Of a stretch of 54,061 bases of DNA, positions 17,327-51,475 are shown one piece after another (the first letter of the stretch is position 1; each line of letters opens with the position of its first letter). Below the pieces are notes generated by a model, which saw only the letters and a list, made by a program, of their open reading frames with translations, was not told the origin of the DNA and made no database searches. The translations under genes and the position numbers were made by a program. Source of the DNA: Prorocentrum cordatum (Eukaryota); NCBI GenBank assembly GCA_963575745.1, contig CAUYUJ010000268.1, positions 62,001 to 116,061 on the forward strand, in the 5' to 3' direction.

Positions 17327-17616
17327 TTTAGTCATGGGCCCCGGTACGTCCCGGCCCAATTTCGAGCGGCCCGCTCGCGCCAGCTCGCACGGGGAGCTCG
17401 TCGGGCCGCTCCGGGGGCGCCCCCCCTCGCACGGAGCGCTTGGGCGCGCCTGGGAGCGCCCGGGCATGCCCGGCAGCGCCTGGGAACGCTTTGCAGCGCT
17501 TCGGAGCGCATGGAGAGGCGTCGGAGAGCTTGGGGGCGTCGCGATGGCGTTATGCTTGCTGTTGTTCGGGCTTGCCCAATACGGAGTGCTTTTGGTTTAG
17601 GGTTTAGGGTTTAGGG

Positions 17617-18465
17617 CTTCTCGGGCGCGCAGCGGCCGACAGTCTGGGCGAGACTGCCCCCCCTTCGGCAGGCTCGGTTAGGGGGGGCGCGTCGCCGACC
17701 CTATCAAGCCTGCCGACGACGCAAGAGCTGCAACCACTTCCCACCCCCGGCCGCATGGCCGGCGACCTCCCGAAAGAAAGCCTTTTAAGGTTTAAGGCCG
17801 CTGGCTTTTAAATTCTCCAAAGCGCTCTAAGCGCTCCCAGGCGCCCCCTGGCGCCCCCAGACGCTCCAGGGCGCTCCAAGGCGCCCCCAGGCGCTCCCAG
17901 GCGCCCCCGGGCGCTCCCAGGCGCCCCCAGGCGCCCCAGGCGCTCCCAGGCGATCCCAGGCGCCCCCAGGCGCTCCCAGTCCCAAGCGCCCCAGGCGCTC
18001 CCAGGCGCTCCCGGCGCGCTCCCGGCACGCTCCCAGGCGCTCCCAGGCGCCCCCGGTCGGCAGGCTCGATTGGGGGAGCGCGTCGCCGAACCGATCTAGC
18101 TTGCCGACGACAGAAGAGCTGCAACCACTTCCCACCCCCGGCCGCATGGCCGGCGACCTCCCAAACTAAAGCTTTTTAGAGTTCAGGGCCGCTGGCCCCT
18201 AAATTCCCAAATGCGTTCTAAGCGCTCCCAGGCGCTCCCAGGCACTCCCAGGGCGCTCCCAGGCGCTCCCAGGCGCTCCCGGCGCGCTCCCGGCACGCTC
18301 CCAGGCGCTCCCAGGCGCTCCCGGCACGCTCCCGGCACGCTCCCAGGCGCCCCCCGGCGCTCCCAGACGTTCCCAGGCGCCCCCAGGCGCTCCCAAGTGC
18401 GCCCAGAGGCGTTTAGAGCGCCCCACACGTGTTTTTACGTGTCGGAGAAGCGCAGCACCCCGCGG
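17617..18465 (+). mobile_element. Telomere-flanked non-coding module, family D copy 1 (copy 2 at ~27163-27720)
   Basis: Shared start cttct..gcgcagcggccgacagtc, shared agagctgcaaccacttcccacccccggccgcatggccggcgacctccc, (GCGCTCCCAG)n interior, and shared end cacacgtgtttttacgtgtcggagaagc. Confidence 0.6.
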
Positions 18466-18486
18466 TTTAGGGTTTAGGGTTTAGGG

Positions 18487-20345
18487 TCTAACAGGCTTGG
18501 CCACGATTACAACTTGCCCACGAACCCACCTACGGTGGCCGTCAATCCCACCCGCAAGCCACCCCACCATAAAGATCATCTCTCCTCTCCTTGAAACAAC
18601 ATCGGCGCAAACGAAGACGACGGCAAACGACGACGAGGACGACCGCGCGTTGCTTTTATTGTTAATTGCCCTGGACCTATCCCGCCACTGTGCTATAGCA
18701 TGGCATAACACAGCAGGGGTCTCCAAAAAGTGGTGACCCCTATGTGCGCGTCGCCTTTGACTGTTACCTGCCCTATGCCTATCCCGCCACCGTCTATAGC
18801 ATGGCATGGCACGGCATGGGTCCCCAACAAGTGGGGACCCCTATGTGCGCGTTGCTTTTATTGTTAATTGCCCTGGGCCTATCCCGCCACTGTGCTATAG
18901 CATGGCATAACACAGCAAAGTCCCCCAAAAGTGGGGACCCCTTATGTGCGCGTCGCCTTTTATTGTTACTTGCCCTAGGCCTATCCCGCCACTGTGCTAT
19001 AGCATGGCATGGCACAGCATGGGTCCCCAAAATGTGGGGACCCCAATGTGCGCGTTACCTTTTACTCCTATCGCCCTAGGCATATCCCGCCACTGCGCTA
19101 TGGCATGGCATAGCACAGCATGGGTCCCCAAAATGTGGGGACGTCTACGCGCGCGTTGATTTACTCGTACTTGCCCTAGGCTTATCCCGCCACGGTGCTA
19201 TAGCATGGCATAGCACAACATGTGCCCTCAACAAGTGGGGGGCCCTATGTGCGCGTTGCCTTTTACTATTTGCCCTATGCCTATCCCGCCACTGTGCTAT
19301 AGCATGGCATAGCACAGCATGGGCCCCAAAAAAGTGGGGACCCCTATATGCGGACAAGTAACAGTAAAAGACAGCGCACATAGGGGTCCCCACTTTTTGG
19401 ATACCCATGACTTGCTATGCCATGCTATGGCATAGTGGCGGGATAGGCCGAAGGCAAGTAACAGTAAAGTACGGCGCGCACATGCGTGCACAGAAAAGCA
19501 TGAACAAGAAGAACATATAATGACAAATGATGAGGCGGAGAGAAGTGGGGAGGTAGCTGGCAATCGAGACACACTCGAGATAATTGTTAAACTTCAACAC
19601 CCGTGTGCCCCATACAAGCGAAACGGTTCGGGCAGACGGCCCCTAACGAGCGCGACAGATCGGGTCGGGCGATGGCACGCGAGTACCCTAGCGGACGGGA
19701 CGGGTCGGCCAAGCAAAACGACCAGGACGAATCAGGTCGGGCGAAAGAGATTCTGCACGCATACGCAGCAAATGCTATTTTTTTGAAAAGAAAAATATGC
19801 TCGCAAGGGGGGCGGGGCACTTTGTAATGTAAAATACAAGAGATTCTGCACGCATGCTCCGCAAATGCTATTTTTTGCAGTAGATGGACCGGATTTACAT
19901 AACCAGGTGGCAAGGGGGGCCGGGCACTTTATATGTAGTACAAAAGATTACGCACGCTTGCTCAGCATGTGTTTTTTTCCAATAGATGAACGCGGAACGC
20001 ATCAGGGACCAGGTAATTTGTAATGTGAAATACAAGAGATTCTTCACGCATGCTCAGCAAATGCTTTTTTCTTGCAGTAGATGGAGCTGGTTTACATAAA
20101 CCGGTCGCGACGGGGGCCGGGCACTTTGTATTGTAAAATACAAGAGATTATGCGCGCATGCTCAGCAAATGATATGTTTTGCAGTAGATGGGACCGGGTC
20201 GCAACGGGGACAGGGCACTTTGTAATGTAAAATATATGAGATTCTGCACGCATGCTCAGGAAATGATATTTTCCAGTAGATGGAGCGGGTTTGCATGGTG
20301 ACCGGTTTTAGGTTATTCAGGGTTTAACCATTATAGGGTTAGAAA
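18487..20345 (+). mobile_element. Telomere-flanked non-coding module, family C copy 1 (shorter copy at ~26490-27134)
   Basis: Shared start ctaacaggcttggccacga..aaagatcatctctcctctccttg and a shared ~100-bp subrepeat (gagattctgcacgcatgctcag..gcagtagatggagcggg) near the right end. Confidence 0.6.
18644..19480. repeat. About 100-bp tandem repeat (7 units) followed by about 1.2 inverted units
   Basis: atcccgccac recurs at 99-102 bp spacing from ~18679 to ~19283; a reverse-complement unit lies at ~19355-19480. Confidence 0.9.
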
Positions 20346-20366: not shown

Positions 20367-21704
20367 TGTTGCCCGCCAAGCGGTGTGGGCGCGCGCACGC
20401 ATCCCACCCCCATATCCAGATTGTTGGGGGTGGGATGCTGTGTGCGCGCTCGCGTTGCTTGTCCTCCCGCCCCAATCCACCCCGGCTATTTTCTTTTAGG
20501 GTTTAGGGACACAGAGAGTTCTTCCCCCCAGCCCCCACTCATGGGGGGTCGATCACAGCGTCGTCCCACCTGAGAGCGCGCAGGCGCTGTAACGCATTGG
20601 GGAACAGCCTCCAGCTTTAGTTCGCGCGTTGGGGAACGCCCGACCGGGCGATCTCTTCCGACTCTCGCAGGGGCGGTTCTGCGCGGTGGCGCACGCGCAG
20701 CGGTTTGCTGGCCAACGAGGTGTCGTACCTTGTGGCCCATGTTACGCTGGCGACGCCAGAACCGCGCCTGCGCGCTCTTTTTCGATGCCCAAGCGCGCTG
20801 GCGAGCGCATATGGCGATTGAAGTAAACTTACGCAGATGCCTCAATCTCAGAAGCGATCATGGTGGGGGGGACCAGCTCGCCGGACGCTCCGCGGCTCGC
20901 GCGCGCGCGCGAGGTTCCCGCGCTGACACCACGTCGTCCTCTAGAGTCTCCGGGGTTCGTTCGCGCGTTGGGGGACGCCCGACCGGGCGACCTTTTCCGA
21001 TTCTCGCAGGAGCGATTCTGCGCGGTGGCGCACGCGCAGCGCTTTGTCTCGGATGGCGGGAGGGGGAGCTCGAGGGGGCGGGCCTGGCGCCCCCTCGATG
21101 CGACGCACCAGGCAGCGCGTCGCGTGCGTCAGCCGGCCGGCCGGCCGGCCGTCCAGCCGTCGAGTGTATTCCTTATCGCTGAAGTACGTTGGCGACGCCA
21201 GAACCGCGCCTGCGCGCTCTTTTTCGGTGCGCAGGCGCGCTGGCGAGCGCATATCGCGATTGGGGTAAAATTACGCATCCGCTTCAATCTCAGAGGGGAT
21301 CATGTTGCGCCACGACAACGGGGACCAGTGCGCCGGACGCTCCGCGGCTCGCGCGCGCGCGCGAGGTTCCCGCGCTGGGGACCCCCTGGGAGCGCTTGGG
21401 GAGCCTCTGGGACGCGTGGAAGCGCCTGGGGAGCGCTTGGGAGCCCGCCCAGGCGCGCCTGGGGGCGTTTTCTAGGTTTTCCTAAGTTCCTGGGGCAACA
21501 TTGCCCCCGCTGGCGTTGGGTTCCGGTTTTCGGGTTCTTATTTCCTGCTACGCAGGTAGCCTGTGGCGTAGCCAGCCTGAGGCGTGGCGTGTGGGCGGTC
21601 GAGCTTAACCTCTCCCTTTCCGTAGATCCTTCAGGCGCTCCACTGAACGTTCCGACCAAGGCTCGTATGCGTCTGGGGCATCCCGACAGCGACGCATACT
21701 CGAG
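20367..21704 (+). mobile_element. Telomere-flanked non-coding module, family A copy 1
   Basis: Start tgttgcccgccaagcggtgtggg and end gacgcatactcgag are shared with the copies at 21719-22976 and 23832-25196; truncated copy at 30530-31066. Confidence 0.75.
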
Positions 21705-21718: not shown

Positions 21719-22976
21719 TGTTGCCCGCCAAGCGGTGTGGGCGCGCGCACGCATCCCACCCCCACATCAAGATTGTTGGGGGTGGGATGCTGTGTGCGCG
21801 CTCGCGTTGCGTGTCCTCCCGCCCCAATCCACCCCGGCTATTCTCTTTTAGGGTTTAGGGACACAGAGAGTTCTTCCCCACAGCCCCTACTCATGGGGGT
21901 GTCGAACACCACGTCGTCCTACCTGAGAACGCGCAGGCGCTGTAACGCATTGGGGAACAGCCTCCAGGCCGACCGGGCGCTCTTTTTCGGTGCACAGGCG
22001 CGCTGGCGAGCGCATATCGCGATTGGGGTAAAATTACGCATATGCTTCAATCTCAGAGGGGATCATGTTGCGCCACGATAACGGGGACCAGTTCGCCGAA
22101 CGCTCCGCGGCTCGCGCGCGCGCGCGAGGTTCCCGCGCTGGGGACCCCCTGGGAGCGCTTGGGGAGCTTCTGGGACGCGTGGGAGCGCCTGGGGGGCGCT
22201 TGGGAGCGCGCCCAGGCGCGCTGGCCGGCAAGGTTGACGCAACGCTATCCCCAGGCAAGTGGAAGAGCACGAAGTGGCTTACAGTTGGCTCCGGGCATCC
22301 AAAATGTGGCCCGGGAATGGAGTTCTGGGAAGTCGAAGAGCACGAAGTGGCCTACAGTTGGCTCCGGGCATCCAAAATGTGGCCCGGGAATGGAGTTCTG
22401 GGAAGTCGAAGAGCACGAAGTGGCCTACAGTTGGCTCCGGGCATCCAAAATGTGGCCCGGGAATGGAGTTCTGGGAACTCGAAGAGCACGAAGTGGCCTA
22501 CAGTTGGTTCCGGGCATCCAAATGTGGCCCGGAAAGTTCTGGGAGGTCTGGGAATGTCGAAGAGCACGAAGTGGCTTACAGTTGGCTCCGGGCATCCAAA
22601 ATGTGGCCCGGGAATGGAGTTCTGGGAAGTCGAAGAGCACGAAGTGGCTTACAGTTGGTTCCGGGCATTCAAAATGTAGCCCGGGAATGGAGTTCTGGGA
22701 CGTCGAAGACCACGAAGTGCGAGATTGTTTGCTTAAAGCGAGCCCGGGCCCGGGGGGTTCTGGGGGCAACATGCGCGCTTGCTGGCATTTGGTTCCGGCT
22801 TTCGGTTTCTTATTTCTTGCTACGCAGGTAGCCTGTGGCGTAGCCAGCCTGAGGCGTGGCGTGTGGGCGGTCGAGCTTAACCTCTCCCTTTCCGTAGATC
22901 CTTCAGGCGCTCCACTGAACGTTCCGACCAAGGCTCGTATGTGTCTGGGGCATCCCGACAGCGACGCATACTCGAG
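21719..22976 (+). mobile_element. Family A copy 2 (internal deletion plus 73-bp array)
   Basis: Same termini as copy 1; bounded by TTTAGGG on both sides. Confidence 0.75.
22260..22720. repeat. 73-bp tandem repeat, about 6 units
   Basis: gaagagcacgaagtgg recurs at 22262, 22335, 22408, 22481, ~22559, ~22632, ~22705. Confidence 0.92.
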
Positions 22977-22997: not shown

Positions 22998-23454
22998 CCT
23001 CGCTGGGCGGAAGCAGCTCGACCCCCCCTCCTTCGAGAGGTTGGAGGGGTCGGCTGCTATTCGTTCCCGTTCCCACCCCCCGCCCAAAAGTACCCCTTTA
23101 GGGCTTAGGGTTGTTCTACCCCCCCTCTTTCCCCCCTTCTCATGCGGGGAAGCTCCTTGCTGGCGGCGACCATCTTCTGGCGTCTATCATCTGTCAATAT
23201 ACCCCCTTTCGCCCCCCTTCGCATGGGGGGTAGCTTTCTCTTGCTCGGGGCCGCATCTTGCACGCAGGGTGATCTTTTGGTTTTCATGTAGAATTTCCTG
23301 GGGAAGGGCTTGGTATATCGGCGACAGGGAATACCCAGCGCAACAGCCGCACTGCACATCCCATGACGATCGAGCGCTCCAGGAGCCCCCCAACGCTCAA
23401 GCGCCACGCAAGGCAGCGCGCTACCGATGTCACGAGCGGGCCTGGCCTGGCCTG

Positions 23455-23490
<36 letters not shown>

Positions 23491-23812
23491 CCAAGCGCTT
23501 TCAAGCGCTCCCAAGCGCTCCCAAGCGCTCCCAGGCGCTCCCAAGCGCTCCCAGGCGCTCCCGGGCGCTGCCCAGCGCTCCCCGGCGTTCCCATGCTTGT
23601 TTGGCCGGGCTGAGCGGGTAGGGGTGTCACGAGCGGGCCTGGCCTGGCCTGGCGCTCCCAGGCGCTCCCAGGCGCTCCCAAGCGCTCCCAGGCGCTCCCA
23701 AGCGCTGCCCAGCGCTCCCCGGCGCCCCCATGCTTGTTTGTCCGGGCGGAGCGGGTAGGGGTGTCACGACCGCCTGGCCTGGCCGGGCGCTCCCAGGCGC
23801 TCCCAAGGGGTC
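22998..23812 (+). mobile_element. Telomere-flanked module H (single copy)
   Basis: 5' hairpin, internal TTTAGGGCTTAGGG at 23097-23110 and (GCGCTCCCAG)n, the same layout as families A, D and E. Confidence 0.45.
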
Positions 23813-23831: not shown

Positions 23832-25196
23832 TGTTGCCCGCCAAGCGGTGTGGGCGCGCGCACGCACCCCACCCCCACATCAAGATTGTTGGGGGTGGGA
23901 TGCTGTGTGCGCGCTCGCGTTGCGTGTCCTCCCGCCCCAATCCTCCCCGGCTATTCTCTTTTAGGGTTTAGGGACACAGAGAGTTCTTCCCCCCAGCCCC
24001 CACTCATGGGGGTGTCGAACACCACGTCGTCCTACCTGAGAACGCGCAGGCGCTGTAACGCATTGGGGAACAGCCTCCAGGTTTAGTTCGCGCGTTGGGG
24101 AACGCCCGACCGGGCGATCTCTTCCGACTCTCGCAGGAGCGGTTCTGCGCGGTGGCGCACGCGCAGCGGTTTGCCGGCCAACGAGGTGTCGCACTTTGTG
24201 GCCCATGTTACGCTGGCGACGCCAGAACCGCGCCTGCGCGCTCTTTTTCGATGCCCAGGCGCGCTGGCGAGCGCATATGGCGACTGAAGTAAACTTACGC
24301 AGATGCCTCAATCTCAGAAGCGATCATGGTGGGCCACGACAAAGGGGACCAGCTCGCCGGACGCTCCGCGGCTCGCGCGCGCGCGAGGTTCCCGCGCTGA
24401 CACCGCGTCGTCCTAGAGTCTCCGGGGTTCGTTCGCGCGTTGGGGGACGCCCGACCGGGCGACCTTTTCCGATTCTCGCAGGAGCGATTCTGCGCGGTGG
24501 CCCACGCGCAGCGCTTTGTCTCGGATGGTGGGAGGGGGAGCTCGAGGGGGTGGGCCTGGCGCCCCCTCGATGCGACGCACCAGGCAGCGCGTTGTGTGCG
24601 TCAGCCGGCCGGCCGGCCGGCCGTCCGGCCGTCGAGTGTATTCCTTATCGCTGAATTACGTTGGCGACGCCAGAACCGCGCCTGCGCGCTCCTTTTCGGT
24701 GCGCCGCCGCGCTGGCGAGCGCATATCGCGATTGGGGTAAAATTACGCATGTGCTTCAATCTCAGAGGGGATCATGTTGCGCTACGACAACGGAGACCAG
24801 TTCGCCGGACGCTCCGCGACGCGCGCGCGCGCGAGGTTCCCGCGCTGGGGGCCCCCTGGGAGCGCTTGGGGAGCCTCTGGGACGCGTGGGAGCGCCTGGG
24901 GAGCGCCTGGGAGCGCGCCCAGGCGCGCTGGGAGCGCCTGGAGAGCCCCTGGCAGCGTTTTCCTAGGTTTTCCTAGGTTCCTGGGGGATCTGGTAGGCTT
25001 GCTGTGATTGGGTTCCGGCCTTGGGGTTCTTATTTCCTGCTACGCAGGTAGCCTGTGGCGTAGCCAGCCTGAGGCGTGGCGTGTGGGCGGTCGAGCTTAA
25101 CCTCTCCCTTTCCGTAGATTCTCCAGGCGCTCCACTGAACGTTCCGACCAAGGCTCGTATGCGTCTGGGGCACCCCGACAGCGACGCATACTCGAG
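23832..25196 (+). mobile_element. Family A copy 3
   Basis: Colinear with copy 1 over its whole length, same termini. Confidence 0.75.
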
Positions 25197-25217: not shown

Positions 25218-26488
25218 TCCACTAGCCCAAACTTGCAGCCCACTTGACCGTGTCCCACCCACCCATGACCCAAGACATATTGATCTCGATGCGGTATCAA
25301 CGCGCGACTCGCAAAACGACGACGAGGACGACACCGATGACGACGACGTTGATATTGTTTTCAAAACGACGACGACGCGGCCGCGCAAAGACACCTGGGA
25401 CGCGGCTGCAACGGCGATGCGGCCCGCGCGCGTGACGACGCGATTTGAAGAACCACGTTTTTTGACGCGAGTCCCTGTGCGATGCAGGGACGCCGCCCAG
25501 CGGCGGAGAGGTTGCACGCAAGATCCACGTTTATTGACGCGAGTCCCTGTGCGACGCAGGGACGCCGCCCAGCGGCGGCGAAGTTGCACGCAGTGGTTGC
25601 CCAAGGCGCGCGGGATGACTCGTTGCCCCGAAGAGAGGGATCCCCCTGTGCATCCTCGGGACTGCGCCGCGGCGCGCAAAGGCCGATGCAAGGGCGATGC
25701 GACGCGCGCGCGCGAGGGGCGCGCCCTGGGATTTGCAGGTCCTCCCAGAACGCCATTCCTGGCGCTCCGAGGGCAAGGATCTGCGCGAGGGGTGCGCCAA
25801 AATGGGGGGGGCGGCCGAAGGAGGGACTTTAGGGCGGCGGAAGGCGTTTCAGGATTTAAATCTTTATAGGCTCTTTTTTTTTAGGGCCCACTAGCCCAAA
25901 CTTGCAGCCCACTTGGCCGTGTCCCACCCACCCGCGACCCAAGACATATTGATCTCGATGCGGTATCAACACGCGACTCGCAAAACGACGACGAGGACGA
26001 CACCGATGACGACGACGTTGATATTTGTTTTCAAAACGACGACGACGCGGCCGCGCAAAGACACTTGGGACGCGGCTGCAACGGCGATGCGGCCCGCGCG
26101 GCACGGCGCGCGGAGGCCGATGCAAGAGCGATGCGATGCGCGCACGCGCGGCGCCGTCATCGGTGTCGTCCTCGTCGTCGTTTTGCGAGTCGCGTGTTGA
26201 TACCGCATCGAGATCAATATGTCTTCGGTCATGGGTGGGTGGGACACGGTCAAGTGGGCTGCAAGCTTGGGATTTGCGGATCGGGCCAGAACGCCATTCC
26301 TGCTGCTCCGAGGCCAAGGATCTGCGTGAGGGGCGCACCCTGGGATTTGCAGATCCTCCCAGAACGCCATTCCTGGCGCTCCGAGGGCAAGGATCTGCGT
26401 GAGGGGTGCGCCAAAATGGGGGGCGGCCGAAGGGGGGACTTTAGGGCGGCGGAAGGGATTTCATGATTTAAATTCTTATAGGCTCTTA
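25218..26488 (+). mobile_element. Family B, two tandem copies (25218-~25875, 25887-~26488); third copy at 27939-~28635
   Basis: Shared start ccactagcccaaacttgcagcccacttg and shared end atttaaat..ttataggctctt. Confidence 0.6.
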
Positions 26489-27364
26489 GTTTCTAACAGG
26501 CTTGGCCACGAGCACACCTGCCCCACGAACCCACCTGCGGTGGCCGTCAATCCCACCCGAGAGCCACCCCATCACAAAGATCATCTCTCCTCTCCTTGGA
26601 ACAACATCGGTGCAAACGAACCCGACCGCGCGCGGCGAGTTGGTCCAGGAGATGGAGGCGGTGTACATGAGGGGGTCGCAGTGTGTATTGTAAAATACAA
26701 GGGATTCGGCACGCATGCTCAGGATGGAGCATGCGCAGGATCAGGAAATGCTATTTGTTGCAGTAGATGGAGCGGGTTTACATAACGGGGTCGCAACGGG
26801 GGGCGCCCACTTTGTGTTGTAAAAAATAAGAAAGTCTGCACGCATGCGCTGGAAATGCTATTTTGTTGCAGTAGATGGAGCGGGGTCGCGACGGGAGCCG
26901 CCCACTTTGTGCTGTAAAAAAAGAAAAAGAAATGCTGCACGCATGCTCAGGAAAGGTTATCTTTTGCAGTAGATGGAGCGGGGTCGCAACGGGGACTGGG
27001 CACATTGTGCTGTAAACAATATATGAGATTCTGCACGCATGTGCAGGAAATGCTATTTTTTGCAGTAGAAGGAGCGGGATTGCATAACGTTCGGTTTTAC
27101 AGTAATTAGGATTTAAGAATTATAGGATTAAGAATTTAGGGTTTAGGGTTTAGGGTTTAGGGCTTCTTTTAGCGCAGCGGCCGACAGTCAAGGCAAGGCT
27201 GCCCCCCTTTCGGCAAGCTTGATTGGGGGGGCGTTTAGCCGACCCGATCAAGCTTGGCGAAGGGCGCAAGAGCTGCAACCACTTCCCACCCCCGGCCGCA
27301 TGGCCGGCGACCTCCCAAACTAAAGCCTTTTAGGGTTTAGGGCCGCTGGCCCCTAAATTCCCAA

Positions 27365-27421
<57 letters not shown>

Positions 27422-27557: not shown

Positions 27558-27602
<45 letters not shown>

Positions 27603-28921: not shown

Positions 28922-28954
<33 letters not shown>

Positions 28955-34155: not shown

Positions 34156-34187
<32 letters not shown>

Positions 34188-41695: not shown

Positions 41696-41717
41696 TCCGT
41701 TGCCGCTTTGGCTCAAG
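41696..41717 (+). other. Relic dinoflagellate spliced-leader (DinoSL) sequence upstream of the RepHel start
   Basis: TCCGTTGCCGCTTTGGCTCAAG versus DinoSL DCCGTAGCCATTTTGGCTCAAG: 19/22, ungapped, 90 nt before ATG 41808. Confidence 0.75.
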
Positions 41718-41807
41718 CCTGATTTCGCCACCGCTTGGCACGCGCACCTGGCAGCCATCGTTGGCAGGCATCAGCCTCGCATCCACCTTCAGCGCACTCT
41801 CGCGGCG

Positions 41808-44800: not shown

Positions 44801-47144
44801 GGCGAAGTTCTCGGACAGCAGCTACGACGAGTGGATGAGCGACAGGGCCTCCGCGGACAGCGTGGCCAGGCGCGTCTGCTTCGAGTACCACCCCTACGAG
44901 CCAGAGATGATCCTGCAGCTGTGTGGAGCGCAATTCAGACAGTACGACATCTCTACTGTCAGCGGCGGCTTCCGCACCGTGACGGCGCCTTACTCGGGCA
45001 TGGCGGAGGTGCCCGAATGGGTCCAGAGGTATGCTGATTGCTCATGGCGCCACGAGGGCATGACGCTCTTGGATTGGCTTCGGAAGACTACCGACGACGG
45101 CGCCATCGCTGGGTGGCTGAAGCGCAAACACAAGCAGGAGCTGGTGCTGGCCCTGCACAGGCGGTACCGCGCGACCGTGCCCGACGGCGAGGAGCCCCAG
45201 GCGCTCGACGCTCACTGGCGCTTCCTGTGCGCTGAGTACAAAGGCATGGCCGATGCTGATGGCGGAGATGGCGGCAACAGCGACGAAGACTCCGACGCCG
45301 AAGACGTGGAGCAGCCGAAGACCTTCGAGGAGTTCCTAGCGAAGAAGCACAGAGACGAAAAGAGCGAGGGCGAGGACGACTTTCCTAATCTCAAGGAGTT
45401 CGCGCGAGCCTACCGCATGCAGGGCGAGAAGGTGGTCAGCGTCGACACGGTATACGAGCTCAACGACCGCTACTACGGCCAGTGGGCTGCAATGAACGTG
45501 CCGTTCCGATCGCTCGACGAGCTCGAGTTCGAGGATGTCAATCGCCTGGTTCCGCAGAAATACAAGTATCTCGCGGCGGCGCTGCGACTGTGCTCCGACC
45601 AGGGCCGCGTCGCTCAAGAGCACCATGACTTGTTCACCGATGACAGGCGGCTCATGGACTACATGAGCGCTTCAGCGAAGTCCAGCAAGTTCACCGAGGC
45701 TGTGCATCACATGATCGTGGGCCAGCGGAAGCTCATCAACATGTACCTGACGGGCATCATCGACAAGGCCGACGAGAAGGCCGCGGCCGACGCCGAGGCC
45801 GCGGTCATCGGCAGCCGCAGGCCAGCGCGCGGCGAGGGACAGGAGGATGTCGACTTCAACCCGAAGCAGCTGCAGCTGGAGGAGGCGATCAACGAGCGCG
45901 TGGACCGTGCCGCGCGAGCGGAGCTGTCGGGGGACTGGGAGGAGGCCGACAAGGCGCGCGAGGAAGCGCACAAGAAGAACACGCCAGTCATCTGCCTTGG
46001 GAAGCCTGGGACGGGGAAGACCACCGTGGTAAAGTCCTGCATTCGGCGCGCCCAGGAGCAAGGCGCGCGCGTGCTCTACGCCCTCCCGACGGCGCAGCTG
46101 TCCAGCCGCATGAAGCAAGCACTGCAAGGCCTGGAGGGCCTAACGATGGACACGTGCCACGCCGCATTCAAGCTGCACGATCCAATCACAGAGAGTCTTC
46201 ACAGGATGACGGACTTCGATTTGGTGGTGGTTGACGAGGTATCGCTGCTGAGTTGCGAAAGCTTCGAGCGCATCCTGAAGCTGTGGGGCGTCGCGGGGAA
46301 AGTTCCCGCGCTGGTCTTCCTCGGAGACAAGCACCAGCTCCCTGGGGTCGAGCCGACACGTCCGTGGGAGAGTGCCGCATGGAAGCAGCCGCGCTGCTTC
46401 CACGTGAAGCTCACCGAGACCTGGCGGTGCAAGGAGGAGCGCTTCCAGGAGATCCTGGACGAGCTTCGGACAGACAAGCCTTCGAAGGAGACGTTCCGCA
46501 AGATTGTGCGCGATCACAAGGCGTGGAAGAGCAGAGGCGATCCCACGCCCGCCGAAATGAAGAAGCTCTTCGAGAAGCACCCAGACACGCGGATCGTCAC
46601 CTGCACGCGCAGGGGCGCTGCGGCCGTGAACGAGGCTGCAGTCGCTGCGCTGTACGGCCGCAAGACCCCGCTGGCCACGCTGGACGGCGATGTGGAACTC
46701 AACCCCGAGAACTACCTGGATGGCAAGCTTCGCACTGACCGCCGTCTGGTTCCAAGCAAAGTGCCGATCTATAAGGGGATGAAGTTGTACCTGACGAAGA
46801 ACAAGAACAAGGAGGCTGACGAGGTCAACGGCATGCTTTGCGAGGTGGAGAACTACCACGCCGAGGAGGACATGCTGCGCGTGATGACGAAGACTGGCCA
46901 TCGTCTGGCCATCACTCGCTGGACCGATCGCGAGAAGGGCAACGCGGTCTACTTTCCAATCCGCCTCGGGTACGCCAGCACCATCGACAAAGTGCAAGGC
47001 GACGAGTTCCCCCACATCACTATATACCTGGACGGATGGCCTCGACCAGCAGCGGGGTATACAGCGCTCAGCCGTGTCGCGACGTCGGACGACTACCTGA
47101 TCGGCGGCTACGTGGAGCGCGACAACTTCATACCCGCGTTCTGA
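41808..47144 (+). CDS. RepHel transposase: Cys-rich N-terminal repeats, HUH Y2 endonuclease and PIF1-family SF1B helicase (about 1778 aa; ORF open from 41466)
   Basis: Rep motif 1 LFFTIAP (~44124-44144), motif 2 RLEFQ..GRPHLHVLFF (HLH 44454-44462), motif 3 YVSKYVAK (44784-). Helicase motifs GKPGTGKT (~45999), VVVDEVSLL, LGDKHQLPGV, LTETWR, FPIRLGYASTIDKVQG, YTALSRV. Intronless, no stops, strong GC3 bias. Confidence 0.93.
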   Translation: MGPRRCSGFATDDGIVIECCFNPWEKGKRAQGKFEGKCQWCSPIRMATICATPQQSKLTAHSLANLHKLDIGIYDMAVERVKMHERGDELIARAVGIISERSQVGVPPPPPIECDQGNVVSQPADEEIPAAMEPDEEAAAAGPAAAAEPPPVPAEGEGAAAGRRRRRLCEGYSLARAMGRRLRSKEDEGVCLFSREHPGQRARAPDGKCLWCTPARMKEAASNPAKKKEAMTDLKKFEARNPALKQKALGRLRRHLTAQEYKVIVTPHDCCRGAGDAMCPFSTTNPGQPARVVKADKHLCSWCDPQRLRGMQTEKRRGVLKQLEAFHEKDEAVFAKAEAILKEIFGDNYLAQMKKKTVRQNQQAAKARRRTGKTDWPTKLAKRRLVMESPTVDEEARKRFRKLALADLKKVENSFYKDTAERKMRGRADEVPKSKDLEPPIGEAGFSDLSKGLRSWAAKGSWGICKECHVLQPRPMHEIDMLLDASEEISKSACRRCNASREMYVPLPDDVPGPLRGLSEEIVEALRPIEIDVGSETRSTDTFGRPDGYRKKVKMITFYFSKWHVKDNIKELDDDARRTAKKAHKYLLSCEESSYKRFHDMHEKFLRKQGEDATDRKRKRPYHFLQEVGLECALWPNLYWCTEMTETHEQWSDARREERRDAQEAKKKKAKYGYDSDAEEDEGGDGGGQRTSVKRSFMTKCLSPLLGYGSNFELLQFVYDLNLWATLGAKKNLGLDNVPMRMLMKGHTFSPLYWKEVQNALVDLVRQVGFPKLFFTIAPWEPCFKCHDWLRDEMEKTLRTRMYLPVGETLHMSHVLMQIVRGMLAGNNYQMMDRSNRSWTQHVFAAKDADGRQVRVQSFTRLEFQDGSRKEGTKRYDGSGRPHLHVLFFAEDDSMANMGLEHHLFATQPDGFSDDLKGYVDGSQFNKHGDAESKWPIYHGPSGVHGGDGVLQLKHTREDHDAGLRAYCADVMDGLPCHQDWQTSDGEAMLLQYVSKYVAKFSDSSYDEWMSDRASADSVARRVCFEYHPYEPEMILQLCGAQFRQYDISTVSGGFRTVTAPYSGMAEVPEWVQRYADCSWRHEGMTLLDWLRKTTDDGAIAGWLKRKHKQELVLALHRRYRATVPDGEEPQALDAHWRFLCAEYKGMADADGGDGGNSDEDSDAEDVEQPKTFEEFLAKKHRDEKSEGEDDFPNLKEFARAYRMQGEKVVSVDTVYELNDRYYGQWAAMNVPFRSLDELEFEDVNRLVPQKYKYLAAALRLCSDQGRVAQEHHDLFTDDRRLMDYMSASAKSSKFTEAVHHMIVGQRKLINMYLTGIIDKADEKAAADAEAAVIGSRRPARGEGQEDVDFNPKQLQLEEAINERVDRAARAELSGDWEEADKAREEAHKKNTPVICLGKPGTGKTTVVKSCIRRAQEQGARVLYALPTAQLSSRMKQALQGLEGLTMDTCHAAFKLHDPITESLHRMTDFDLVVVDEVSLLSCESFERILKLWGVAGKVPALVFLGDKHQLPGVEPTRPWESAAWKQPRCFHVKLTETWRCKEERFQEILDELRTDKPSKETFRKIVRDHKAWKSRGDPTPAEMKKLFEKHPDTRIVTCTRRGAAAVNEAAVAALYGRKTPLATLDGDVELNPENYLDGKLRTDRRLVPSKVPIYKGMKLYLTKNKNKEADEVNGMLCEVENYHAEEDMLRVMTKTGHRLAITRWTDREKGNAVYFPIRLGYASTIDKVQGDEFPHITIYLDGWPRPAAGYTALSRVATSDDYLIGGYVERDNFIPAF

Positions 47145-47837
47145 GATTGCCTCCGGTGTCCGCGCGTTGGCTGGCGCGCGACCGCTCGCCTCTCGCAGTA
47201 CCACGCGGTGCGCCTGCCCCGCTGTCGCGTGCAAAGGCACGAACGTGCGCATTCCTGTTAGGAAAATGATGGTCTGTCAGTGCCACGTCGGGGAAGGGAA
47301 GGAAAGCAGAAGGAAGGGCATACGTAGAGATTGTCTGACGTTCTCGACACCCCTGGAGTTTCCAAACGGCGGGGAGGGGGAGCGCGAGGGGGCGGGTCTG
47401 GCGCCCCCTCGTACATGGCCACGGAAGGCGTCGTGTGATGCCCTTCGCGGCGGACTTCGCAGTGCGAAAGGCGCCGGGCGCGTGCCCCTCGCGCTCCCCC
47501 CCGTGAAACCCCGTGGGACTTAAAATACGAGCCCCTGGAACTCGCCGGGGCTTGCTCGACGAGGTCTTGGGCGAATCACTTGGGTCCGCGGAGCCGTTCG
47601 GCGCATCTGCGTCGCTTTTTTTTTTCGCGCCGCGGTTTCTGCTAGATGCACCAGCAGGGCACCGAAGCATAGCCGAAGAAGCCGCCGCAGGCATAACGTT
47701 CTGCATGGCACACCAAGAAGGCCCAGAGGCCGCCGTAGGCGTATTTCCACGTGCGTTACGCTCCCCAGCACAGCCAGAGAGGCCGCCGTAGGCGTGGTTT
47801 CACGTGTAAGGCAGTCCCCAGGGGATGAGACCGACAT

Positions 47838-48160
47838 GGAAGCGCTTGGGAGCGCCAGGGAGCACCGGGGAGCGCCTGGGAGCTTGCCGGGAGCGCTTGG
47901 GAGCGCCTGGGAGCGCCATGCGCCTGGGTGCATTGGGAGCGCTTGGGAACGTGCCGAAAGCGCTGGGAGGCATCTAGGCGCTCCTGGGAGCGCCTGGGAG
48001 CGCTTGGGAGCGCCTGGAACGTTTGGGAACGCTTGGGAGCGCCTGGGAGCGCCTGGGAACGTTGGAGAGCGCCTGGGAACGTTGGAGAGCGCCTGGGACC
48101 GCTTGGGAGCACCTGATAGCGCTTGGGAGCGCCTGGAAGCGCTTGGGAGCGCCTGGGACG
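47838..48160. repeat. (GGGAGCGCCT)n 10-bp minisatellite (also in families A, D, E, F, H)
   Basis: Directly visible. Other tracts at ~17830-18400, 23455-23805, 27366-27660, 28815-29160, 29925-30205, 33580-34270, 41140-41200. Confidence 0.93.
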
Positions 48161-48507
48161 TGCGCCAGCCGAAAGGACGCCGCATACTGTATTTTCATAT
48201 GTTTTGCGGCCCCACTGACGGCCGAAAGAGCGCCGCATGCCGTATTTTCATAGGTTTGGAGCCCCAGGGGATGTAGGCGCCCGCTGCGAACCCACTGGCT
48301 GGGTTTTGGGTTAAGGGTTTTATTCATCTCTCGGAGCACTCACAAGGCATCCCCGCGGGGGAGCGCATCCTCCTCAGCGCTACGCGCTTCGTCGGTGCGG
48401 CGTGCGCGCATGGGCGGACTCGCTGATCGCTCGGCCAGGCGCCACGGGCTTCTGACGATGCACCGCCCGTGGCTTGCAGTTTAGGGTTTAGGGTTTAGGG
48501 TTTAGGG

Positions 48508-49910
48508 CTTCTGCGCAGAACCATCCTATCCCCCCCTCCTCAGGAGGTAGGGGGGGATGGATGGATGCGTTCTGTCCCACCCCATCCACCCAGAGTCATT
48601 GCTTTTAGGGTTTAGGGATCTACCCCCCACGCTCCCCCCTATCAAGGGGGGAAGGAGTGCTGGCGTCAGCCTGAGTGAGTGATGTGCGTCCCAGAAACAC
48701 GCGTGAACCGTAACAAGCGGGTCGGGTCGGGTCGAGCGCACTCGAGGGTTCGCCCGACCTCAACGTGCTTTGCATAGGATTGTGGTGGTTTACGTAGCGG
48801 GACGTAAAGATCCCCATAGCAGGCTCGATCAAGGGGTGCGCCTGGGAGCACGCGTGATCAGTTTATGATATTTTTTGCATAGGATTGTTATGGTTTACAT
48901 AGCGGGACGTACAGATCCCCATAGCAGGCTCGATCCAGGGGCGCGCCTGGGAGCACGCATGATCAGTTTATACTATGTTTTGCATAGGATTGTGGAGGGG
49001 GCCGTGAAGATCCGCACAGCAGGCTCGATCCAGGGGCGCGCTTGGGAACACACATCAATGTATAGTACGTTTTGCGTAGGATTGTTTACATAGCGGGACG
49101 TAAAGATCACCATAGCAGGCTCGATCCAGGGGCGCGCCTGGGAGCACGCATGATCAGTTTATACTATGTTTTGCATAGGATTGTGGTGGTGGGCCGTGAA
49201 GATCAGCATAGCAGGCTCGATCCACGGGCGCGCCTGGGAACACGCGTGATCATTTTATATTATGTTTTGCATAGGATTGTGGAGGGGGCCGTGAAGAGCC
49301 GCATAACAGGCTCGATCCAGGGGCGCGCCTGGGAACACGCATGATCAGTTTATACTACGTTTAGCATAGGATTGTTTACATAGCGGGACGTAAAGATCAC
49401 CATAGCAGGCTCGATCTAGGGGCGCGCCCGGGAGCACGCGTGATCAGTTTATAATATGTTTTGCATAGGATTGTGGAGGGGGCCGTGAAGATCCGCATAG
49501 CAAGCTCGATCCAGGGGCGCGCCTGGGAACACGCATGGTGAGTTTACATTTTGTTTTGCATGGGATTGTGGAGGGGGCCGTGGAGATCCGCATAGCAGGC
49601 TCGATCCAGGGGCGCGCCTGGGAACACGCATGATCAGTTTATACTACGTTTAGCATAGGATTGTTTACATAGCGGGACGTAAAGATCACCATAGCAGGCT
49701 CGATCTAGGGGCGCGCCCGGGAGCACGCGTGATCAGTTTATAATATGTTTTGCATAGGATTGTGGAGGGGGCCGTGAAGATCCGCATAGCAAGCTCGATC
49801 CAGGGGCGCGCCTGGGAACACGCATGGTGAGTTTACATTTTGTTTTGCATGGGATTGTGGAGGGGGCCGTGGAGATCCGCATAGCAGGCTCGATCCAGGG
49901 GCGCGCCTGG
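48508..49910 (+). mobile_element. Module G: telomere-flanked start followed by a ~96-bp tandem repeat (about 12 units, 48770-49910)
   Basis: 5' hairpin and internal TTTTAGGGTTTAGGG (48603-48617). Unit gcataggattgt..catagcaggctcgatccaggggcgcgcctggg. A 289-bp three-unit block is duplicated (from 49342 and 49631). Confidence 0.6.
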
Positions 49911-50366
49911 GAAGAGCTCTGGGGGGGCTCTTGGGGGGAAGCTTATGGGGAGAAGCTCCGCGGGAGAAGCTGGGGGAGAGCTCTGGGGGAGAGCTCTGTG
50001 GAGAAGCTCTGGTGGAGAGCTCTTGGGGGAGAGCTCTGGGGGATCTCTGGGGGAGAGCTCTGGGGGAGAGCTTCTGGGGGGGGCTCTGGGGAGAGCTCTG
50101 TGGGAGAGCTCTGGGGGTAGCTCTGGGGGAGGCCTCTGGGTGGGGGGCTCTGGGAGATAGAGCTCTGGATGATCGCTTGGGGGGGGGGCCTCTGGAGGGG
50201 AGCTCCGGGGGAGAGCTCCAGGGGAGAGCTCCAGGAGAGAGCTCTGGTGGGGAGCTCTGGGGGGGGGCTCTGGGGGGGAGCTCTGCGGGAGAGCTCTGGG
50301 GGGGGCTCTGGGGGGAGCTCTGGGGGAGAGCTCTGGGGGAGAGCTCTGGGGGAGAGCTCTGGGGGA
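49911..50366. repeat. G-rich minisatellite (GAGAGCTCTGGGG)n
   Basis: Directly visible, 13-14 bp degenerate unit. Confidence 0.92.
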
Positions 50367-51475
50367 GCCGAGCGGTATCCGTGAGCATCTGGCCGAGGGT
50401 TAGGGGTTATTCCCGGATAGCTCCTTGGAGAGCTGAGGGTTTCAGATATGAAGCCGGCGGTGGGTGGTGAGGAGCACACGCCCACCTCCGCCGCTCCACG
50501 ATCCTCGCAGCAATCTGCCGGTCCCGGCAGCGTATTCCGGGAGCTCTCCATGCACGCGTCCACGCGTGCCTGCACGCGTGCAGGCACGCGTGGAAGCGTC
50601 GCTGGCAGCGTTCCAGGAGCGCCTCAGGAGACCTCTCCAGAACGTTCAAGGAGAGCTCTCCAGAGTATTCAGAGCTTTCCAGGAAGCGTTTCCAGCTCCC
50701 GCAGAGCTCCGTCATGCGAATTTTCCAGCGTTTCCACGCACGCTAAACCGCGTGCGTGAGGCCGCCTGACACTCGTGAATCGCGCGCGTGAGCGGCCCGG
50801 GCTGGAGACCCCGGGCATACGCGGCCCCGGGACGAAGACCCGGGGTTCGCACTCCCACCCCTTCTCCCACCTCTTCTTTGCCCCCGGGCGCGCGCGTTTG
50901 CGCCCTGAGCATGCGCCCTGAGCAGGGCGTTAAAAGGCTCCGACCTGAGCAGGTCGTTAAACTGCTCCAGGGAGGGAAGGGGCTTCCGGCACTGCTGGAA
51001 ACCCCTTCCCGAGGCAGGGGGCGGGGGGAGAGGCTTCCGAATCCGTGGGAAACCTCTCCCCCTGGGGGGAAAGAGCCCCGGGCGAACGCCCGGGGGGTTC
51101 CAGAAGGGGCGCTCGGGGGCCTCTTTCGGATCCACCCCACCCCAACCCCCGGAAAAACACGCCCAAAAGAAAACCGCGGACGGGAGGGAAGGGAAGGGAG
51201 GGAAAGAAAGCAGCAGAGGGAAGAGAGGAAGGAAGGAGAACACGGGAGGAAGGAAGAAAAGCAAGCGGGAGAGGGAGAGAGCAGAGCAGGGCAACAGAGA
51301 AAGAAGAAAACGGGGAAAGAGGGGGACGACAGCGGCGAAGACGACGACGAACGCCCCGCGCCGCCGGCTCGCCAGCGCCGCGCCCCGCCCCGCGCGGCCG
51401 CCCCGGGACCCCCGCGCGCGCGCGGGGCCGGGGGGGCCGGGCGGGCGGGCGCCGGCGCTTGGGCGGCCGCGGCGC

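Follow-up and report, generated by a model that had tools for sequence, protein, structure and literature searches.

The telomere-associated retroelements TRAS/SART, HeT-A/TART and Athena/Coprina are mobilised via RNA and encode a reverse transcriptase; they are specific for telomeric sites or chromosome ends and form head-to-tail arrays of one orientation with telomere repeats. The bacterial IS200/IS605 elements are single-strand HUH transposons with Y1 enzymes that lack a helicase; their ends bear hairpins, and they insert strand-specifically into the single-stranded lagging-strand template, directly 3' of a short target of fixed sequence. Homing of Helitrons to a telomeric repeat was first described in 2026 and, as far as the accessible text of that report goes, for Paramecium only: in Paramecium aurelia chromosome ends are capped by telomere-inserted Helitrons (Arnaiz et al., BMC Biol 2026, PMC13085455). 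In cnidarians, Helitron-derived subtelomeric repeats consist of a 372-bp unit that is amplified locally in tandem (Kon et al., Mob DNA 2025, PMC11934779).

We analysed a stretch of 54,061 nucleotides from Prorocentrum cordatum (the window) and consider it about 80% probable that the locus described below consists of arrayed rolling-circle transposons of the Helitron type, which insert specifically in the TTTAGGG repeat, here in a dinoflagellate. After Paramecium, this seems to be a second lineage in which Helitrons home to telomeric DNA. The earlier note on this DNA knew of no described Helitron-built telomeric array, a novelty claim that is outdated because the Helitrons in Paramecium germline chromosome ends were published in 2026 (PMC13085455). 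According to the accessible text of that report, the two systems are alike in having variable-length telomeric repeats on both sides of the elements, an absolute orientation bias relative to the repeat, more ORF-less derivatives than ORF-bearing copies and internal telomere blocks of one polarity; both hosts are alveolates. They differ in the repeat (TTTAGGG here versus C4A2/C3A3), in the element top strand (by our own end assignment G-rich here, C-rich in Paramecium), in the end that faces the chromosome end (the right end here, by our own assignment and the terminal tract of contig L004, versus the left end) and in the protein (1,778 aa versus ORFs of 9–10 kb). The elements described here also carry a length-constrained telomere dimer within the left end, of which the accessible text of PMC13085455 makes no mention for Paramecium, and the array in the window has unique non-telomeric flanks, whereas the Paramecium Helitrons cap chromosome ends. 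The likeness to the cnidarian repeats is that Helitron derivatives are gathered near chromosome ends, which is a feature of the cnidarian case; unlike for the P. cordatum elements, insertion into telomeric repeat is not reported in the abstract of PMC11934779.

The array spans ∼17,364–50,412 (∼33 kb) and was resolved by self-comparison into 16 modules, all of one orientation (16/16), in the order D-like tail, F1, B1, A1, A2, H, A3, C/B chimera, F2, C, D, A/I chimera, I, E1, E2 and G. Family A is present as three full copies and one chimera, families B, C, D, E, F and I as two copies each, and G and H as one copy each. The telomere-punctuated, head-to-tail array of ∼33 kb proposed in the earlier note thus stands, as do the common orientation and the reproducible ends, which are exactly shared between repeated copies, but its count of about 20 modules comes down to 16. 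The family counts agree for A, C, D, E, F, I, G and H and differ for B (two copies instead of three); where two or three F copies had been given, F was counted as two, F1 having an internal partial duplication.

All modules lie on the + strand. At the left array edge a 5'-truncated, D-like 3' fragment (17,364–17,595), with homology to D at the satellite level, is followed by (TTTAGGG)3 (17,596–17,616, + strand). F1 (17,617–18,465) is non-autonomous; part of its left end is duplicated internally, telomere dimers in degenerate form lie inside the module at 17,784 and 18,175, and it is 84% identical to F2 from the 5' end. Three telomere units (TEL3) follow at 18,466. B1 (18,487–20,345) starts with TC and is without an internal telomere dimer; it contains a 101-bp tandem repeat (18,645–19,352), its 3' part is homologous to that of the C/B chimera, and its 3' end grades into decayed telomere-like units. 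A1 (20,367–21,704) is a complete, non-autonomous element, 93% identical to A3 from end to end, with the order 128-nt leader, (TTTAGGG)2 at 20,495–20,508, body, 3' hairpin, TCGAG and telomere tract. A2 (21,719–22,976) is also complete, having the 5' 250 nt and 3' 200 nt in common with A1 and A3; it has an internal 73-bp tandem repeat and is followed by TEL3 at 22,977. In H (22,998–23,810), leader fold and motif identify a type-1 left end, with a 99-nt leader containing a hairpin (z −3.9), a C-box and TTTAGGGCTTAGGG at 23,097; the 3' end lies within a 10-bp minisatellite and adjoins TCTAAGG(TTTAGGG)2. A3 (23,832–25,196), the third complete A element, matches A1 from end to end and is followed by TATAGGG(TTTAGGG)2. 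Each of A1, A2 and A3 is bounded by tracts of 2–3 telomere units. The C/B chimera (25,218–27,134) combines a C 5' end (first 344 nt 98% identical to C) with a B 3' end (last ∼325 nt 78% identical to the B1 3' end). F2 (27,163–27,917), non-autonomous and homologous to F1 in its left end, has a 166-nt leader (hairpin z −5.1), (TTTAGGG)2 at 27,329 and then a 10-bp minisatellite. C (27,939–28,637) has a TC left end, homologous to the 5' end of the C/B chimera, and D (28,652–30,397) starts with TTTACACACCGTATTAG, a start that is also found after a telomere tract in the independent contig L012. The A/I chimera (30,530–31,764) consists of an A left end and ∼500 nt of A body, continued by I from position 28; I itself (31,806–32,602) is 85% identical to the 3' part of this chimera and has degenerate internal telomere units at 31,906–31,926. 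The last module, G (48,508–50,396), has a 96-nt leader, (TTTAGGG)2 at 48,604 and satellites of 95 and 13 bp.

The telomeric repeats share the polarity of the modules. The 14-mer TTTAGGGTTTAGGG occurs 36 times, always on the + strand, with 0 occurrences expected (100 shuffles), and the window holds 72 TTTAGGG units on the + strand and 2 CCCTAAA. When up to two mismatches per 14-mer were allowed, 28 tracts were found on the + strand and 1 on the − strand (range 17,596–48,617). The junction tracts between modules (n = 15) are all on the + strand and in phase, and their lengths sum to ∼495 bp. The spacing of 2–7 units reported previously holds for all but one, a long degenerate tract of ∼19 units (30,398–30,529, + strand; mismatch-tolerant scan). 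Because tract lengths vary from copy to copy, the tracts are best regarded as target DNA and not as part of the elements. The 5' ends common to A1/A2/A3/AI, to F1/F2, to C/CB and to E1/E2 each begin directly after a tract, and the 3' ends common to A1/A2/A3, to B1/CB, to AI/I and to E1/E2 each halt directly before one. In the window, none of the 818 same-strand self-HSPs spans a junction with at least 60 nt on either side; the repeat unit is therefore the single module and not a block of several. The earlier note had named a fixed order of modules as evidence against its proposal; the order is shuffled.

The array is not terminal within the window. D homology begins at ∼17,364 on the left, and on the right G stops at ∼50,396, followed by a degenerate telomere-like remnant only (∼50,397–50,412). 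In the sequence as assembled, both sides continue in unique non-telomeric sequence, ∼3.6 kb of it on the right, the left flank contains a gene-like ORF with a P. cordatum paralogue, and within the window no sequence was found to be shared between the array and either flank. The description of this array as telomeric in position thus goes beyond what the window shows. The flanks, the gene-like ORF among them, are what would be expected if the same Helitrons had accumulated in an interstitial telomeric landing pad instead of at a chromosome end, ∼15 successive insertions having chopped a tract of ∼0.5 kb into pieces of 2–7 units. This is a variant of the preferred explanation that differs in where and how the array grew, and we regard it as a serious possibility without favouring it. 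The short junction tracts (∼495 bp in sum, versus 14–23 units at contig ends elsewhere) also fit it, but an internalised old chromosome end and an interstitial pad look alike from the window alone, and in other contigs related elements lie beside long tracts (see below).

The coding content of the array points to Helitrons. E2 (34,607–48,479, + strand), a 13.9-kb putatively autonomous element, lies between (TTTAGGG)6 and (TTTAGGG)4; the other modules are putatively its ORF-less relatives, deletion derivatives or chimeras. Its left-end leader (34,607–34,733, + strand) was identified by fold and covariance model and consists of a long hairpin and a C-rich box (DNA fold −37.3 kcal/mol, z −4.6 to −4.8; 110.8 bits against covariance model R1), and is followed by a decayed internal telomere dimer (34,734–34,747, + strand). 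Between left end and ORF, Tandem Repeats Finder reported ∼51 copies of a 109-bp satellite (35,539–41,140, no strand assigned). The RepHel gene (41,808–47,144, + strand) is an unbroken reading frame of 1,778 codons, taken from M126 of the stop-to-stop frame, and over the 1,778 aa of its product the identity to a P. cordatum protein from another genomic copy, with the same start Met, is 95%. The right end (48,442–48,479, + strand) is a hairpin, CCACGGGC...GCCCGTGG, followed by CTTGCAG. E1 (32,652–34,564, + strand), an ORF-less deletion derivative, has both ends in common with E2: the left end is 89% identical, an internal block of 588 bp 90%, and the right end, hairpin and CTTGCAG included, 77%.

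Judged by sequence and modelled structure, the E2 protein is an intact Rep-helicase of the Helitron type, combining in a single protein the features of the Helitron superfamily, a Rep domain with HUH and YxxxY motifs and a C-terminal Pif1-like SF1B helicase. The HxH motif is formed by H1008/H1010 and the YxxxY motif by Y1118/Y1122, each at least 90% conserved (n = 24 sequences). Residues 1512–1686 correspond to an SF1B/Pif1-type helicase (Pfam AAA_30, 2.6e-20; AAA_19, 2.8e-17), and the family profile matched Pif1 helicases (1.7e-22) and the helicase of Helraiser (5e-14). By sequence the protein is very divergent from canonical Helitrons and Helraiser (PDB 7lcc), and its target is, in addition, sequence-specific. 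In a profile search against Helraiser the helicase part only was matched and the Rep region gave no match, and the Pfam profile Helitron_like_N scored 14.3 bits on RepHel (P0001), below the cut-off of 28.9, a relative (P0065) reaching 27.8 bits in that profile region. An AF2 model of the Rep region (pLDDT 63) had a sole Foldseek match below 1e-3, which was Helraiser (7lcc_A, E 6.7e-4). The Rep family is large, and its named relatives are all from dinoflagellates save one MAG protein. A Helentron-type AP-endonuclease domain was not found, no such Pfam family matching RepHel (P0001) at E up to 1 (compared with PMC13085455, accessible text).

Of the 88 stop-to-stop ORFs that reach 170 aa or more in the window, RepHel alone is recognisable as a protein gene. 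The array resembles those of telomeric retroelements in layout, as head-to-tail elements of one orientation with short telomere tracts between them are typical of Athena/Coprina and TRAS/SART, and a telomere dimer inside the element, close to one of its ends, is reminiscent of the telomere-complementary tails of Athena. That the modules are such endonuclease-deficient Penelope-like elements or LINEs, added by reverse transcription next to an unrelated helicase gene, has nevertheless a close to negligible probability: among the other 87 ORFs (both strands, at least 170 aa) neither a reverse transcriptase nor a further Pfam domain was found, the sole gene is a Rep-helicase encoded on the strand whose flanks read TTTAGGG, and no poly(A) tails were found at the element ends. 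The Rep-helicase of E2 and the two ends it has in common with E1 agree with the claim, made earlier, of Helitron-type, in many cases non-autonomous, elements in telomeric repeat. Mobilisation in trans by an E2-like protein, also claimed, is backed by shared ends for E1 only; for A, G, H and F it is plausible from the design of their left ends.

This design is common to most modules: next to the telomeric flank lie ∼100–170 nt that contain a long hairpin with covariation; then come a C-rich box (TCCCRCCCCA..CCACCC), 12 nt, precisely two telomere units, (TTTAGGG)2, and a C-run hairpin. The long hairpin was present in 26/26 left-end leaders folded, with z < −3 in 17 of them. In 21 left ends aligned to the model, 91.5% of the cells were paired and 11/21 pairs showed changes on both sides; the covariation exceeded 500/500 shuffles and all slid controls. 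The alignment used had been fitted to the model structure, in whose favour it is biased. At the right end, stems are visible in A, E, F and I and in contigs L004, L009, L013 and L014, the folding z of the hairpin at 14 window ends ranging from −2.5 to +1.5, none being individually significant. Compensatory changes were seen in the stem of E (window versus L013) and, as two pairs, in that of A (window versus L002), where TCGAG and then a telomere tract follow in both copies.

Copies outside the window were sought by a left-end motif scan of metagenomes that did not require flanking repeats; the pattern included the internal telomere dimer, so the scan is blind to copies without it. The scan yielded 16 contigs (GC 0.44–0.69). 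A tract was present 99–130 nt upstream of the left end in 12/16 loci, and the other four comprised two with a single unit, one with a degenerate tract and one truncated where the contig begins. Relative to the left end, 58 tracts were on the + strand and 4 on the − strand. In L002 an A copy is flanked by TEL7 and TEL23, and L007 (TEL13/TEL18) and L012 (TEL5/TEL4) hold E-type copies with first and last bases as in E1. L016 has the same last bases, its 5' end being cut by the contig start. The right end of E2 with its telomere tract recurs in E1, L001, L007, L012 and L016, and L013 has a compensated stem. Copies of the A and E families in independent contigs thus have telomeric flanks and end at the same nucleotides, as the earlier note had anticipated. 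L001 and L004 are element–tract–element arrays, and in L004 an element cut 58 nt past the internal dimer continues as (TTTAGGG)16 at a true contig end. Four contigs (L002, L007, L014 and L016) run out in 7–23 telomere units; together with L004 they place related elements beside long tracts oriented as at a true chromosome end, which argues against growth in a landing pad. None of the 16 loci encodes a RepHel gene, and hence the link between protein and ends rests on E2 and E1.

Interstitial telomere tracts at the borders of human subtelomeric duplicons mark old healed ends. The array could likewise be a patchwork of blocks shuffled by breakage, telomere healing, end joining and ectopic recombination, with the tracts as former healed ends and the Helitron gene as a passenger. 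The C/B and A/I chimeras also fit recombination, H and the element in L004 stop directly before telomere units, within a minisatellite and in mid-body respectively, as after erosion and healing, and every tract has the orientation expected of a healed end. But healing at random breaks would leave ragged ends, whereas members of a family end at exactly the same nucleotides, both in the window and in independent contigs, a compensated right-end stem among them; the left-end architecture is conserved and covaries across contigs of GC 0.44–0.69; no adjacency is repeated (0/818 HSPs); and the ORF-bearing E2 and its deletion derivative E1 share both ends. We therefore hold a patchwork to be very unlikely. 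About as unlikely, if anything slightly more so, is an assembly artefact in which reads from many repeats next to telomeres were wrongly connected by way of the telomere units they have in common, giving a spurious internal array. Assemblies are notoriously prone to mis-joins at short identical telomere units, and the flanking unique DNA is unrelated, but independent metagenome assemblies repeat both the element–tract–element organisation (L001, L004) and the element ends, and the elements with their telomeric flanks would be real even were the order in the window wrong.

For the Helitron array, the flank pattern GGG/element/TTTAGGG, with the same polarity to the repeat in every element, suggests a route of insertion. 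The telomeric G-strand is both the lagging-strand template and the 3' overhang. The HUH domain would nick the element strand twice, directly 3' of a TTTAGGG unit at the left end and 3–9 nt beyond the short hairpin at the right end; the helicase would peel the strand off, and the freed strand would enter the single-stranded, G-rich telomeric DNA at a GGG/TTT boundary and be joined to it. GGG^TTT of the G-strand is the best reading of the insertion point, and insertion may duplicate 7 nt, or a multiple of 7 nt, of the target. Left and right ends were assigned from the sense of the ORF, the hairpin with its short tail being taken as the right end; this assignment is probably correct, and the G-strand polarity, which depends on it, is probable to the same degree. 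Strand-specific recognition of the target would produce the absolute orientation bias, and as each insertion would split a tract, repeated insertions would build a head-to-tail stack with short tracts in between. The likeness to IS200/IS605 is a mechanistic analogy only and implies no family membership. The left-end module is proposed as the docking place for the transposase or a telomere-binding partner. A single DNA specificity could then cover both recognition of the ends and choice of the target, and with every element a new copy of the target motif would arrive.

More speculatively, dinoflagellate chromosome ends may in general be composite, built by a dinoflagellate-wide Helitron clade that reads the telomeric G-strand and carries a two-unit copy of the target in its left end, beside the conserved hairpin and C-box, an idea we find rather doubtful. 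If true, the same protein–DNA recognition would serve end binding, target choice and the seeding of new landing sites; the dinoflagellate 'telomere tracts' reported at 25–80 kb (accessible part of PMC11453091) could partly be Helitron–telomere mosaics; and Helitrons would either have targeted telomeres since the alveolate ancestor or have acquired this habit twice, with opposite strand polarity. The data suggest that telomere homing by Helitrons is not a ciliate oddity, because the same habit is seen in dinoflagellates and in contigs of GC 0.44–0.69. Compared with Paramecium, the other repeat, the apparently opposite strand polarity and the conserved left-end module with its telomere dimer stand out, and these differences offer a testable handle on target choice by HUH transposases. 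The findings also bear on the capping of the nucleosome-poor, permanently condensed dinoflagellate chromosomes, and interstitial telomere repeats in dinoflagellate assemblies need mark neither mis-joins nor true ends.

The terminal sequences differ between families. Left ends read TGTTGC, CCTGCA, CTTCT or TTTACAC, with a TC start in B and C only, and right ends read CTTGCAG, CTCGAG, TTTTGG and others; most families thus lack the 5'-TC, 3'-CTRR and A^T target of canonical Helitrons (HLE1). Hairpins at both ends and a target junction beside a T are shared with Helitron2/Helentron elements, although the junction here is G^T and theirs T^T/C (PMC13085455, accessible text). As to asymmetric terminal inverted repeats, hints of 5–6 nt were noticed by eye.

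The array of Helitron-type elements in telomeric repeat of P. cordatum is a real feature, of a kind recently described in Paramecium, from which it differs in details. Telomeric repeats in the window (54,061 bases, 0 N, GC content climbing from ~0.55 to 0.70) showed a strong strand bias. The 14-mer TTTAGGGTTTAGGG occurred 36 times, on the plus strand in every case, with an expectation of 0 (100 shuffles), and the unit TTTAGGG was found 72 times on the plus strand versus 2 copies of CCCTAAA. Exact tracts of at least 2 units (n = 21) were confined to 17,596–48,617; when up to 2 mismatches per 14-mer were allowed, 28 tracts were found on the plus strand and 1 on the minus strand. The region was split at the telomere tracts, the pieces were compared with each other and the junctions were inspected. 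The resulting map contains 16 modules (letters denote element families) in a single orientation throughout, in the order D-like tail (about 17,364–17,595), F1, B1, A1, A2, H, A3, C/B chimera, F2, C, D, A/I chimera, I, E1, E2 and G. The 15 inter-module tracts have 2–7 units each, except for one decayed tract of ~19 units at 30,398–30,529, and total ~495 bp (sum of the tract coordinates). Piece-versus-piece comparison showed that copies of the same family have identical first and last nucleotides and abut the tract directly. Of 818 same-strand self-HSPs, none spanned a junction by 60 nt or more on each side; the repetition unit is thus a single module, with the order shuffled. These results confirm what the earlier note had described, i.e. 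modules in one orientation with reproducible ends, telomeric separators and a shuffled order; its families and arrangement were also recovered, with slightly different counts (16 modules mapped against its estimate of about 20). The C/B and A/I chimeras fit recombination or deletion between neighbours.

A 10-bp minisatellite, GCGCTCCCAG, is present inside many modules, of different families (e.g. at 17,831–18,406, 23,454–23,730 and 27,366–27,635, with further stretches at 28,816–29,161, 33,604–34,272 and 47,837–48,158). It faces either way relative to the element ends, reading GCGCTCCCAG in F and H and CCTGGGAGCG in D and E.

The sole recognisable gene in the ORF set of the window lies on the plus strand inside E2 (34,607–48,479, plus strand), which is bounded by (TTTAGGG)6 and (TTTAGGG)4 and has 5.6 kb of a 109-bp satellite between its left end and the ORF. 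E1 (32,652–34,564, plus strand) matches E2 at both ends and in an internal block but lacks the ORF; judged from its sequence, it is a deletion derivative of E2. On the two strands together, 87 other stop-to-stop ORFs reach 170 aa or more; none of them had a reverse transcriptase or an above-threshold Pfam match, and what remained was sub-threshold noise, such as an ACBP match of 27.8 bits where a frame crosses the 109-bp satellite.

The frame encoding the Rep-helicase of E2 (RepHel; 41,433–47,144) is open over 1,903 codons. From Met126 (41,808) onwards, the translation shares 95% identity across 1,778 residues with a protein of Prorocentrum cordatum whose start is the same methionine. The C-terminus is a Pif1-type helicase; the family profile matched both Pif1 (1.7e-22) and the helicase of Helraiser (5e-14). 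N-terminal of the helicase, HxH (H1008, H1010) and YxxxY (Y1118, Y1122) motifs are conserved at 90% or more in 24 aligned sequences. The Pfam Helitron_like_N match in RepHel was sub-threshold only. An AlphaFold model of residues 830–1230 had a mean pLDDT of 63, and the only Foldseek match below 1e-3 with this model was the Helraiser transposase (7lcc_A, E 6.7e-4). The conserved HxH and YxxxY motifs, the Pif1-type helicase, the fold match to 7lcc_A and the unbroken frame together show that E2 encodes an intact, very divergent Helitron-type Rep-helicase.

The search for RepHel relatives yielded 78 proteins, the named ones being from Prorocentrum, Symbiodinium, Polarella, Effrenium and Durusdinium. 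A search of the full library with the Rep region alone matched 987 clusters at E≤1e-3, 208 of them at E≤1e-30; in ten clusters that were looked up, the named members were from dinoflagellates, except for one MAG protein. One 629-aa protein of the Rep family, P0084, is deposited under a Rhodothermales MAG; its contig, of 2.5 kb, is probably eukaryotic and mis-binned. The RepHel stretch is partly present in 20 sequencing-run rows from 15 studies, with a largest share of 0.45 and no RNA dataset listed; these matches do not bear on habitat, copy number or expression. The N-terminal third of RepHel (41,808–43,900, residues 126–830) contains three repeats of a Cys-rich motif, C...C.WC.P (residues 144, 316 and 395), which had no Pfam match. 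The repeats look like zinc-binding modules, and this region could be the DNA-recognition part of the protein. A protein-atlas comparison of residues 126–720 had a best score of 0.86 with DUF6570 clusters, which is a weak lead only. A Josephin (deubiquitinase-type) domain was observed in five environmental relatives of ~2,600 aa (P0044, P0046, P0047, P0049 and P0052), in P0046 at the N-terminus (PF02099, 4.2e-10, Hmmscan) and in the other four by precomputed annotation alone; it recalls the protease domains of other Helitron proteins.

The elements of families A, E, G, F and H (and I in decayed form) open with 96–167 nt that fold into a long hairpin with a C6-7/G6-7 core and fold energies of −21 to −43 kcal/mol. 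The hairpin is followed by a C-rich box (TCCCRCCCCA, 1–2 nt, CCACCC), 12 nt, exactly two telomere units and a short C-run hairpin. The length of this internal dimer is constant, whereas the flanking tracts vary in length. The left ends of B and C differ in that they start with TC and are devoid of the dimer, and D starts with TTTACAC. We considered the possibility that the leader (the sequence from the left end to the dimer) is part of the upstream element, but it was rejected: all four A leaders are followed by an A body, with B, A, H and D as the upstream neighbours. The long hairpin was present in all 26 leaders from the window and the metagenome loci (z < −3 in 17). A covariance model trained on five leaders from the window recovered 21 sense-strand left ends. 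In their alignment, which was itself fitted to the structure of the model and leans towards it, 91.5% of the cells pair and 11 of 21 pairs have changed on both sides; none of 500 shuffles and none of the slid controls reached this level of covariation.

The right end of E consists of a stem, CCACGGGC...GCCCGTGG, followed by CTTGCAG, and that of A of a 9-bp stem followed by TCGAG; the other families have different stems followed by 3–9 nt. Taken singly, the right-end hairpins were not significant relative to shuffles (z of −2.5 to +1.5, 14 ends). The 3′ ends of B1 (20,306–20,345) and the C/B chimera (27,095–27,134) grade into AT-rich 7-mers (TTATAGG, TTTAAGA, ATTAGGA) that look like telomere units decayed by G-to-A changes, and the true right end of B may therefore sit further upstream.

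A metagenome collection was scanned for the pattern of C-box plus internal dimer, without demanding flanking repeats, and matches were obtained in 16 contigs (L001–L016; GC 0.44–0.69). A telomere tract was present 99–130 nt upstream of the dimer in 12 of these; of the other four, two have a single unit and one a decayed remnant at that place, and the contig start truncates the last. Over the 16 contigs, 58 tracts were on the plus strand relative to the left end and 4 on the minus strand. L002 is an A-family copy with 86–88% identity at both ends, extending from (TTTAGGG)7 to (TTTAGGG)23; its last base is the same as that of A1 and its right-end stem has two compensatory pairs. L007 and L012 are E-type copies without the ORF, with first and last bases identical to those of E1, and beyond the tract of L012 lies the D-like start of a next element. 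L016 has lost its 5′ end to the contig start and ends in the same bases as E1. L001 and L004 are arrays; L004 has a true contig end in (TTTAGGG)16, right after an element cut 58 nt past the dimer. RepHel was not detected in the 16 loci (tblastn, E≤1e-3), and a scan of metagenome contigs with the Rep alignment gave 598 pattern matches, of which 0 were confirmed. Just upstream of the left end in L004 (1,647–1,752) and L011 (629–965) lies a ~16-nt satellite (ATTTTAGGGTTAAAGG-like) that appears to be derived from telomere units.

On both sides of the elements the telomere units are in phase (...GGG / element / TTTAGGG...), the element ends are fixed, the tract lengths vary between copies and one polarity is kept throughout. 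The array has one autonomous-looking member, E2, and a derivative that retains its ends. A mechanism can be proposed in which the elements would move by rolling-circle transposition and integrate at GGG^TTT in a manner specific for both sequence and strand. The right end was assigned on the basis of the sense of the ORF and the presence of a short hairpin plus short tail; with this assignment the transferred strand would run on into the G-rich strand, and the chromosome end would lie on the side of the right end, as in L004. The telomeric G-strand is the lagging-strand template and forms the 3′ overhang, and its single-strandedness would suit an HUH enzyme working on single strands. The proposed G-strand insertion resembles that of IS200/IS605 elements, which insert 3′ of a fixed motif. 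The length-constrained dimer amid conserved structure suggests a docking site; hypothetically, docking at the dimer would couple end recognition to target choice and renew target motifs within the array. H and the final element of L004 are truncated and capped by repeats, a state compatible with erosion of a real end and its subsequent healing.

The earlier note knew of no described Helitron-built telomeric array; this no longer holds, as the Paramecium case has already been reported (Arnaiz et al., PMC13085455). Excerpts of that paper describe a new Helitron clade inserted in the C4A2 telomeric repeats of germline chromosome ends, with an absolute orientation bias, many ORF-less derivatives and, between ORF and ends, satellites; the authors propose that these elements enter the C-rich strand and have a distal left end (PMC13085455). 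Relative to these excerpts, the P. cordatum locus has the insertion in telomeric repeat, the orientation bias, the ORF-less derivatives and the ORF-to-end satellites in common, but has another host and another repeat, an apparently different strand polarity, a protein of different size and, in its left end, the internal dimer (PMC13085455). No prior account of telomeric Helitrons in dinoflagellates was found in open-licence PMC papers and bioRxiv.

The array is flanked by unique DNA on the left and the right, and no sequence common to the array and either flank was found in the window. Three possibilities remain for this setting: growth of the array within ~0.5 kb of interstitial tract, internalisation of an old chromosome end, or a misassembled join between array and right flank. 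On the 3′ side of G there is only a decayed telomere-like remnant. The right flank consists of 3.6 kb of DNA that is rich in GC and low in complexity; its ORFs have low-complexity translations and no clear gene was seen. Runs of (CGA)n, (GAG)n, (GAC)n and (GACCGG)n at 52,503–52,861 give poly-Glu/Asp in one frame when translated. The left flank has a gene-like ORF, of which a P. cordatum paralogue carries cyclin domains. Three long consecutive ORFs occupy different frames of the minus strand at 6,140–10,935. The 927-aa ORF among them has 75% identity, across 29% of its length, with a P. cordatum protein that has cyclin-domain annotation; this ORF represents a gene bordering the array or else a decayed paralogue. 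Farther to the left, an imperfect (AGT)n microsatellite of ~325 copies occupies 1,780–2,750.
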